Of a DNA stretch of 64,000 nt, positions 17,209 to 18,232 are shown one piece after another. A model generated the notes under the pieces. It was given only the letters and a program-made list of their open reading frames with translations. It was not told the origin of the DNA and did not search any database. How positions within the stretch are numbered: the stretch's first letter is position 1; the number at the start of each line of letters is the position of its first letter. The DNA is taken from the sequence record PQ863255.1, one strand, 5' to 3'. This DNA comes from Escherichia phage Ptacy1532. The position numbers were made by a program, and so were the translations under genes.

Positions 17209-17591
17209 TCTCCAATGATTTCCATATCCGCTTTATCTCCTTTCTTAGTAAGGAGGATTGCTGGTTTATTCTTACTCTTCATATACTCAAACATGTGCAT
17301 AGAGCCTCTTGACTCTCCATCCCAGAAGACTATCACTGCATCTGCATACTCCCCCATGTCTACATTTCGAAGTATCCCAGCCTTTTTGCCGAGAGTGTTC
17401 CATGAAGGAATGAAACGTTTGATAGGTATGTCATTATGTTTAGCAACAGTCTCTCCGTGAAGATCTGGCCCTCTTGCACCACCTGACACTACTTCTGAAA
17501 TCAGTTTAGGGATTTCCTCTGGAAGCAAAGCCCACATCTGAGTAAAAGAATGCCAGTCTATCGACCGGCTTCCTGCGATTATCACTTTCAT
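17199..17591 (-). CDS. Rossmann-fold nucleotide-binding protein (SLOG/DprA/LOG-like)
   Basis: [10 protein letters not shown]...[10 protein letters not shown] glycine-rich loop pattern. Confidence 0.4.
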
Positions 17592-18232
17592 GTAATCAAT
17601 CCTTGAAACTCTTCTTTATTGAAATGCTTCTCTACCACATACTCATACAGATCTTTTAACTCCGCATAACGACGGTAGAAAGTTCCGTGTGACATTCCAA
17701 TAGTCTTCTGAATGTGGTCATGTGGGATTCCCAAGAAGATCATTGAGAACATATTGGCTAACTTCTGAGTATCCATCGTATCACTTAAATCTTGGAAGAA
17801 ATAGAAGATACGAGACTCCATGAATGGGTCACCAACAGAATCTTGCTTATCCATAGCAATCTCTAAAGGACTATCCACCATATCTGGAGTACGGAACATA
17901 TCAGCCTCTGGAATAGAGTAGATACGACGGTCCCCCACAGTCTGCCTATTTGAACGTATAGACCAGATAATATTCTTGACTCGATAAGTCATATGCTCTT
18001 GGTCTTTCTCATCCTCTAGGACTCTCTCATCCTGCTTAGCGAAGACAAATCTCCAAGCATTCAAGAGCACTTCCTGTGCCACATCTTCTGCTTCATGATA
18101 ATCCCTGATATCATACATGAAGAACTTGTGAACCACTTTCCAGTTCACTTTATAAAACTCTTCATAGTTTGAGATATATTTAATAGGGATTCCATGAATG
18201 CGATATCTTGTAGGTGTTGTCTTCTTCGCCAT
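17588..18232 (-). CDS. ECF-type sigma factor-like protein (phage-encoded)
   Basis: Region-2-like [22 protein letters not shown] and region-4-like [25 protein letters not shown]. Confidence 0.55.

Follow-up and report, generated by a model that had tools for sequence, protein, structure and literature searches.

A gp36-type sigma factor and its promoters in the Kuravirus Escherichia phage Ptacy1532, with a candidate seventh gp36-type promoter in the 40/41 spacer

Phage phiEco32 codes for a sigma factor, gp36, and a second protein, gp79, both of which were found by mass spectrometry in RNA polymerase (RNAP) purified from infected cells (PMC12276001). The RNAP-gp36 holoenzyme transcribes the middle and late phiEco32 genes from promoters in which an AATGTA element is centred at -11.5, and core RNAP together with gp36 transcribes both P26 and P68 in vitro without sigma-70; gp79 boosts this transcription 4-fold at P26 and 3-fold at P68 (PMC12276001). 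The consensus for gp36-dependent middle and late promoters has been published as tAATGTAtA (PMC8948821), and six such promoters are described: P26, P40, P58, P68, P6, and P13 (PMC8948821 Table S3). We took this promoter list from later papers that cite the original mapping work.

A cryo-EM structure of the open complex on P68, at 3.4 Å, places gp36 in the positions of sigma2 and sigma4 (PMC12276001). The N-terminal domain (residues 1-103) is sigma2-like; residues D44, E47, E49, D50, and E54 contact the beta' clamp helices, N95, S91, S94, E79, and H80 read -14A, -13A, -12T, and -11G, and W90 and Y83 stack at the fork (PMC12276001). The linker threads the active-site cleft in the manner of sigma3.2, and the C-terminal domain (residues 138-214) is sigma4-like, with M138, I142, F166, L167, and F204 contacting the flap tip helix, R187 contacting -37G, and Y186 contacting the T opposite -34A of P68 (PMC12276001). 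gp79 displaces sigma-70 region 4 and holds the C-terminal domain of gp36 through F146, M164, L167, and I169 (PMC12276001). With this structure solved in 2025, gp36 and gp79 are a textbook-grade case of a phage swapping out the host sigma factor.

Two other phage systems invite comparison. The authors of the gp36 structure draw an analogy with AsiA and MotA of phage T4 (PMC12276001), which likewise form a two-protein early-to-middle switch, one protein disabling sigma-70 region 4 and co-activating, and the other giving specificity; T4, however, keeps and remodels sigma-70, whereas a gp36-type phage replaces it with a sigma factor of its own. Salmonella phage 7-11 has a phiEco32-like genome, and its SaPh711_gp47 is also a distant sigma-70 relative; it directs the host core enzyme to late promoters with genome positions like those in phiEco32 (PMC8948821). 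SaPh711_gp47 has ~15% identity to gp36, its promoter is bipartite (GTAAtg-(16)-aCTA), and 7-11 is without a middle gene class, unlike phiEco32 (PMC8948821). On a gp79 counterpart in 7-11, the statements in that paper are inconsistent (PMC8948821).

The window analyzed here is a stretch of 64,000 nucleotides from Escherichia phage Ptacy1532 (PQ863255.1). It is a Kuravirus genome, collinear with phiEco32 from 15833 to 77554 and then running into the terminal repeat. Window positions 63516..63931 match the phiEco32 left end (2..417) directly after the phiEco32 right end (77554), and this joining of right and left ends points to a terminal repeat, or else to an assembly that was joined into a circle.

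A first-pass annotation of the window, made from the letters alone, had described a 214-aa protein as a phage-encoded, ECF-like sigma factor. The ORF is confirmed on the minus strand, where it runs from ATG to TGA (214 aa plus stop); the ATG overlaps the stop codon of the upstream gene (TAATG), and at the other end the TGA shares bases with the start codon of the gene 35 homologue downstream (ATGA). The protein is identical at 213 of 214 residues both to phi32_36, which carries the product name 'RNA polymerase sigma factor' in phiEco32, and to chain F of PDB 9m7y, where the entry name is 'RNA polymerase ECF sigma factor'; the sole difference is at position 205, which is N in the window protein and D in phiEco32 gp36. 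As the orthologue of phiEco32 gp36, for which genetics, biochemistry, and structure are already available, the gene is not new, and nothing is added here on the sigma factor as such. The 6 kb around it have 99.6% identity to Escherichia phage vB_EcoP_WFI101126 and match 98 phage records whose hosts are all E. coli or Shigella; the protein has at least 99% identity in 61 records, phiEco32 among them. There is some value for annotation, in that WFI101126, the closest relative, has the sigma gene as 'hypothetical protein'.

We consider it nearly certain, at a probability of about 0.97, that this gene encodes a Kuravirus gp36-type sigma factor that would replace sigma-70 on E. coli RNAP in middle and late infection. 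The first-pass proposal that the phage redirects host RNAP with its own sigma factor matches what the literature has shown for a gp36 with 213 of 214 residues in common (PMC12276001). The protein would act as a two-domain promoter-specificity subunit (sigma2-like, linker, sigma4-like) on the E. coli core enzyme. Its N-terminal domain would sit on the beta' clamp helices, read AATGTA from -14 to -9, and start melting at -11, and its C-terminal domain would sit on the beta flap tip helix and touch the -35 region. gp79 would push sigma-70 region 4 off RNAP and clamp the gp36 C-terminal domain, and transcription would switch from host and early genes to the middle operons (from P68, P58, and P40) and the late ones (from P26, and from P6 and P13 outside the window).

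The promoters on which such a switch would act are found in the window, apart from P6 and P13, whose positions fall in the part of the genome outside it. There are four copies of TAATGTATA, versus 0.73 expected, and none of 100 shuffles reached four; counting the AAATGTATA variant, we find five strong sites. The recurrent motif picked out in the first-pass annotation is real, and it equals the published gp36 consensus (PMC8948821). The four copies and the variant all lie in spacers that are intergenic by the phiEco32 annotation, which we used for these calls; the ORFs in which a mechanical ORF map places some motif sites are spurious short ORFs or have over-extended starts. At four of the five strong sites, the flanks match phiEco32 sites that are the published P26, P40, P58, and P68 (Table 1), and in each case a start codon in the same orientation follows the element by 37-60 nt. 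The distance is 39 nt from the P26 element to the gp26 homologue start (10265), 60 nt from that of P40 to the gene 40 homologue, and 37 nt from that of P58 to the gene 58 homologue. With promoters numbered so that AATGTA occupies -14..-9, the GGTAGTAGATA block of P68 carries -37G and -34A, the same bases as in the structure paper; -34A is present in all five strong sites, and -37G only in P68 and the fifth site. The long co-directional transcription units described in the first pass are also borne out, with a plus-strand block from 51 to 14814 followed by almost entirely minus-strand genes to the window end.

Table 1. Coordinates of the sigma factor gene, its partner, promoters, and neighbouring elements in the window
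Feature	Position	Strand	Basis or remarks
Phage sigma factor gene, phiEco32 gp36 orthologue	17588..18232	minus	ORF, 213/214 identity, profile matches
gp79 orthologue, 82 aa	37877..38125	minus	tblastn 100% identity to phi32_79; PHROG 8339
Late promoter P26, TAATGTATA element	10218..10226	plus	flanks match phiEco32 26014-26022; PMC8948821 Table S3
Middle promoter P40, TAATGTATA element	20015..20023	minus	matches phiEco32 36632-36640; invariant in 10 genomes
Middle promoter P58, TAATGTATA element	26430..26438	minus	matches phiEco32 42937-42945
Middle promoter P68	31938..31968	minus	AAATGTATA at 31938-31946 and upstream block GGTAGTAGATA at 31958-31968
Terminator-like GC hairpin followed by T run	18746..18763	minus	terminator in the WFI101126 record
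Candidate seventh gp36-type promoter	20065..20097	plus	GGTAGTAGATA, 11-nt spacer, TAATGTATATA
Conserved non-coding element	20100..20261	plus	5' hairpin, variable module, GC hairpin, long hairpin
Parts of the element: 5' hairpin; GC hairpin; long hairpin	20100-20121; 20170-20184; 20193-20256	plus	

Conservation of the protein points the same way as its promoters. All 23 distinct contact residues published for gp36 are present in the window protein, and they are invariant except for M138L in an alignment of six gp36 homologues (the window protein included) from Kuravirus, Suseptimavirus, and Nieuwekanaalvirus, with 80-100% identity. The region-2-like segment singled out in the first pass (residues 41-62) includes the acidic helix that contacts the beta' clamp helices in the gp36 structure, and the region-4-like helix-turn-helix (residues 178-195) includes Y186 and R187, which make the major-groove contacts at -35, so both first-pass assignments hold. 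Position 205 is D in all five aligned relatives, phiEco32 included, and N only in the window protein, of which none of the 98 matching phage records holds a 100% identical copy (best 99.5%). An impaired N205 allele, with weaker RNAP binding and a phage leaning more on sigma-70 promoters, would fit both this rarity and the position of residue 205 next to F204, a published flap-tip-helix contact, but we regard it as highly improbable: the change from Asp to Asn is conservative, residue 205 is not itself among the listed contacts, and N205 could be a sequencing error. Moreover, the cognate promoters and gp79, which has 100% identity to phi32_79 over 82 aa, are all intact, and this argues for a working system. 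We predict that the N205 variant would behave like the D205 protein.

Profile searches recover the sigma domains faintly. Pfam Sigma70_r2 aligned to residues 31-62 only (E=0.002, 18.3 bits, below the gathering score of 24), and no region 4 model (Sigma70_r4 or r4_2) matched the protein even at E<=10, so that of the two profile comparisons proposed as a check in the first pass, one gave a sub-threshold alignment and the other no match. Region 4 homology is also described as absent from gp36 itself (PMC8948821). The NCBIfam model TIGR02937 (sigma70-ECF) spans residues 23-192, with E=4e-5 and 23.3 bits, below its cut-off of 42.9 bits; 13 of the 14 NCBIfam matches are to sigma-factor models, and PHROG 1740 'RNA polymerase sigma factor' matches at E=5.5e-45. 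As judged from these profiles, the sigma signal is weak but consistent, and the sequence is too divergent for the curated bacterial models. Sub-cut-off scores and an unmatched region 4 might be expected of a free-standing helix-turn-helix regulator that modulates the sigma-70 holoenzyme and is not a sigma subunit, but such a role is hardly conceivable for a protein one residue different from that which fills the sigma2 and sigma4 positions on RNAP in the cryo-EM structure, with its linker in the active-site cleft, and which forms with core RNAP a purified holoenzyme that transcribes without sigma-70.

For the gp36-type sigma factor, 'ECF-like' is best taken as a description of architecture, because the protein falls below the curated sequence cut-offs and region 4 found no match; it holds for the two-domain sigma2/sigma4 arrangement only, and not for membership in a curated family. 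Bacterial group 4 (ECF) sigma factors, such as E. coli sigma-E, likewise consist of a minimal sigma2, linker, and sigma4 (the gp36 cryo-EM structure has neither a sigma1.1 nor a sigma3 domain), and positive autoregulation, another ECF trait, is likely for gp36 through P40 upstream of its own operon. Beyond this, the earlier label does not carry over. The gp36 protein scores below all the curated cut-offs, with weak full-length similarity to TIGR02937. Its promoters have AATGTA at -14..-9 and a poorly conserved -35 region, whereas ECF-type promoters are of the AAC/CGT type. In contrast to ECF sigma factors, gp36 has a shorter sigma4 helix, bound to a flap tip helix that is rotated, and its partner is the co-activator gp79 and not an anti-sigma factor, of which none is evident: the PHROG names of the sigma-gene neighbours are GTP-binding-domain protein, spanins, and HNH endonuclease, and going by names only, none is an anti-sigma factor. 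The features of the gp36-type family of the Gordonclarkvirinae (full-length similarity, contact residues, promoter elements, and gp79) are all present in the window.

The neighbourhood of the sigma gene is the same in phiEco32, with the gene 35 homologue downstream and spanin genes upstream, but there are differences at the junction itself. At the window junction 18228..18235, the phage lacks what phiEco32 has at 34833..35273: gene 37, for a macro-domain (Appr-1-p processing) protein, with a promoter at its 3' end. Gene 38 abuts gene 36 directly, unlike in phiEco32. This promoter, TGGACA-18-TATAAT, is of the sigma-70 type and close to consensus; it lies ~20 nt ahead of gene 36, and the SU10 paper considers it to be the sigma gene's own. 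The private promoter is missing from the window. We therefore infer that the first gp36 would come from sigma-70 transcription starting further upstream. Candidate sources are a weak ATGAGA-17-TATAAT at 18492..18464 (minus strand) and promoters within the 40/41 spacer of the kind suggested in SU10. gp36 itself would then add to expression from P40, the nearest upstream gp36-type promoter of the sigma-gene operon, such that gene 36 of the window phage would owe most of its transcription to P40 and to sigma-70 initiation upstream. That the lineage in the window has lost the private sigma-70 promoter of its sigma gene is a small addition to what is known of the system.

Further upstream, an HNH endonuclease gene (18786..19199, minus strand; PHROG 959) lies between genes 39 and 40, where phiEco32 has none, and the terminator-like hairpin (Table 1) sits between this gene and the spanin and sigma genes. 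The same HNH homing-endonuclease gene is also present in SU10 and WFI101126.

The six published gp36 promoters do not include the fifth strong site, and this promoter-like site, together with the structured element downstream of it, may be new. The motif copy proper (20087..20095, plus strand) corresponds to phiEco32 36704..36712 and lies in the 40/41 intergenic spacer; the site reads rightward, against the direction of the genes around it, and transcription is predicted to start at about 20102. Of each spacer, the computational promoter search of 2015 covered the gene-sense strand only. The fifth site and P68 have a common upstream block at equal distance (TTGGTAGTAGATAT, -39..-26), and among 10 genomes from three genera, both blocks of the fifth site are invariant, with the 11-nt spacer between them varying in sequence at constant length. 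Four complete genomes in IMG/VR matched the composite motif, and each has two copies of it.

Directly downstream is an element of ~160 nt (20100..20261), conserved across genera, in which we find no credible ORF, and the 40/41 spacer has no Rfam family, with a permissive search included. The 5' hairpin shows compensatory changes at two pairs (UA/GC; CG/UA/AU), and since this covariation comes from few sequences and these two pairs only, we treat it as a lead and not as a result. The module that follows occurs in two alternative versions, and beyond it ~100 nt (20162..20261) are nearly invariant and hold both the GC hairpin and the long hairpin. The long hairpin folds on both strands; the plus-strand RNA is the stabler of the two (-23.5 versus -18.2 kcal/mol, with three G-U pairs), and the minus-strand version is followed by a U run, such that a role as gene 41 terminator is just as possible for the hairpin on the minus strand.

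We tentatively suggest, as a possibility somewhat short of even odds, that the fifth site is a gp36-dependent promoter from which the conserved element would be transcribed as a non-coding RNA, either a small RNA or a replication primer. The primer option would liken it to oriF and oriG of T4, which are middle-promoter replication origins. Cumulative GC skew is featureless at 20 kb and turns at ~14-16 kb, where gene orientation switches, so the idea of an origin in the 40/41 spacer finds no support from skew. As for an antisense target, complementarity of the candidate RNA to other parts of the window extends over 11 nt at most, and shuffled controls do as well. An active fifth site would mean that the transcription map of phiEco32 lacks an entry and that the phage possesses either an origin or a non-coding transcript dependent on its sigma factor.

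The first-pass annotation also stated that no phage RNAP gene is visible in the window, and this holds for the ten largest window ORFs (367-1488 aa), among which PHROGs and Pfam searches find no RNAP family. These ORFs code for tail proteins, DNA polymerase, primase/helicase, nucleotidyltransferase, an amidoligase-type protein, and proteins of unknown function, and the phiEco32 genes that fall outside the window are for packaging, head, tail, and lysis. The late operon ends with the largest of the unknowns, the gp26 homologue (10265..14686, plus strand; 1473 aa), whose PHROG has no assigned function; neither a Pfam domain nor a PDB sequence relative turned up for it, which does not by itself exclude an RNAP fold. 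Because it is directly downstream of P26 and next to DNA-ejection proteins, the gp26 homologue may be an internal virion or ejection protein. Two phiEco32 genes with suggestive RefSeq names were rejected as RNAP genes: phi32_50 ('RNA polymerase', 42 aa, in a PHROG of unknown function) and phi32_127 ('polymerase', 87 aa) are both far too small. The names of genes 50 and 127 look like annotation artefacts, and they could mislead automated scans for phage RNAPs.

We note some further features of the window. Gene 34 of phiEco32 is replaced by a different ORF, and there is a further HNH-like ORF at 15271..15672. tRNA is the only Rfam family found over the window at the gathering threshold, and the tRNA gene (51768..51839, minus strand; RF00005, 59.3 bits) is in the position of the phiEco32 tRNA-Arg.
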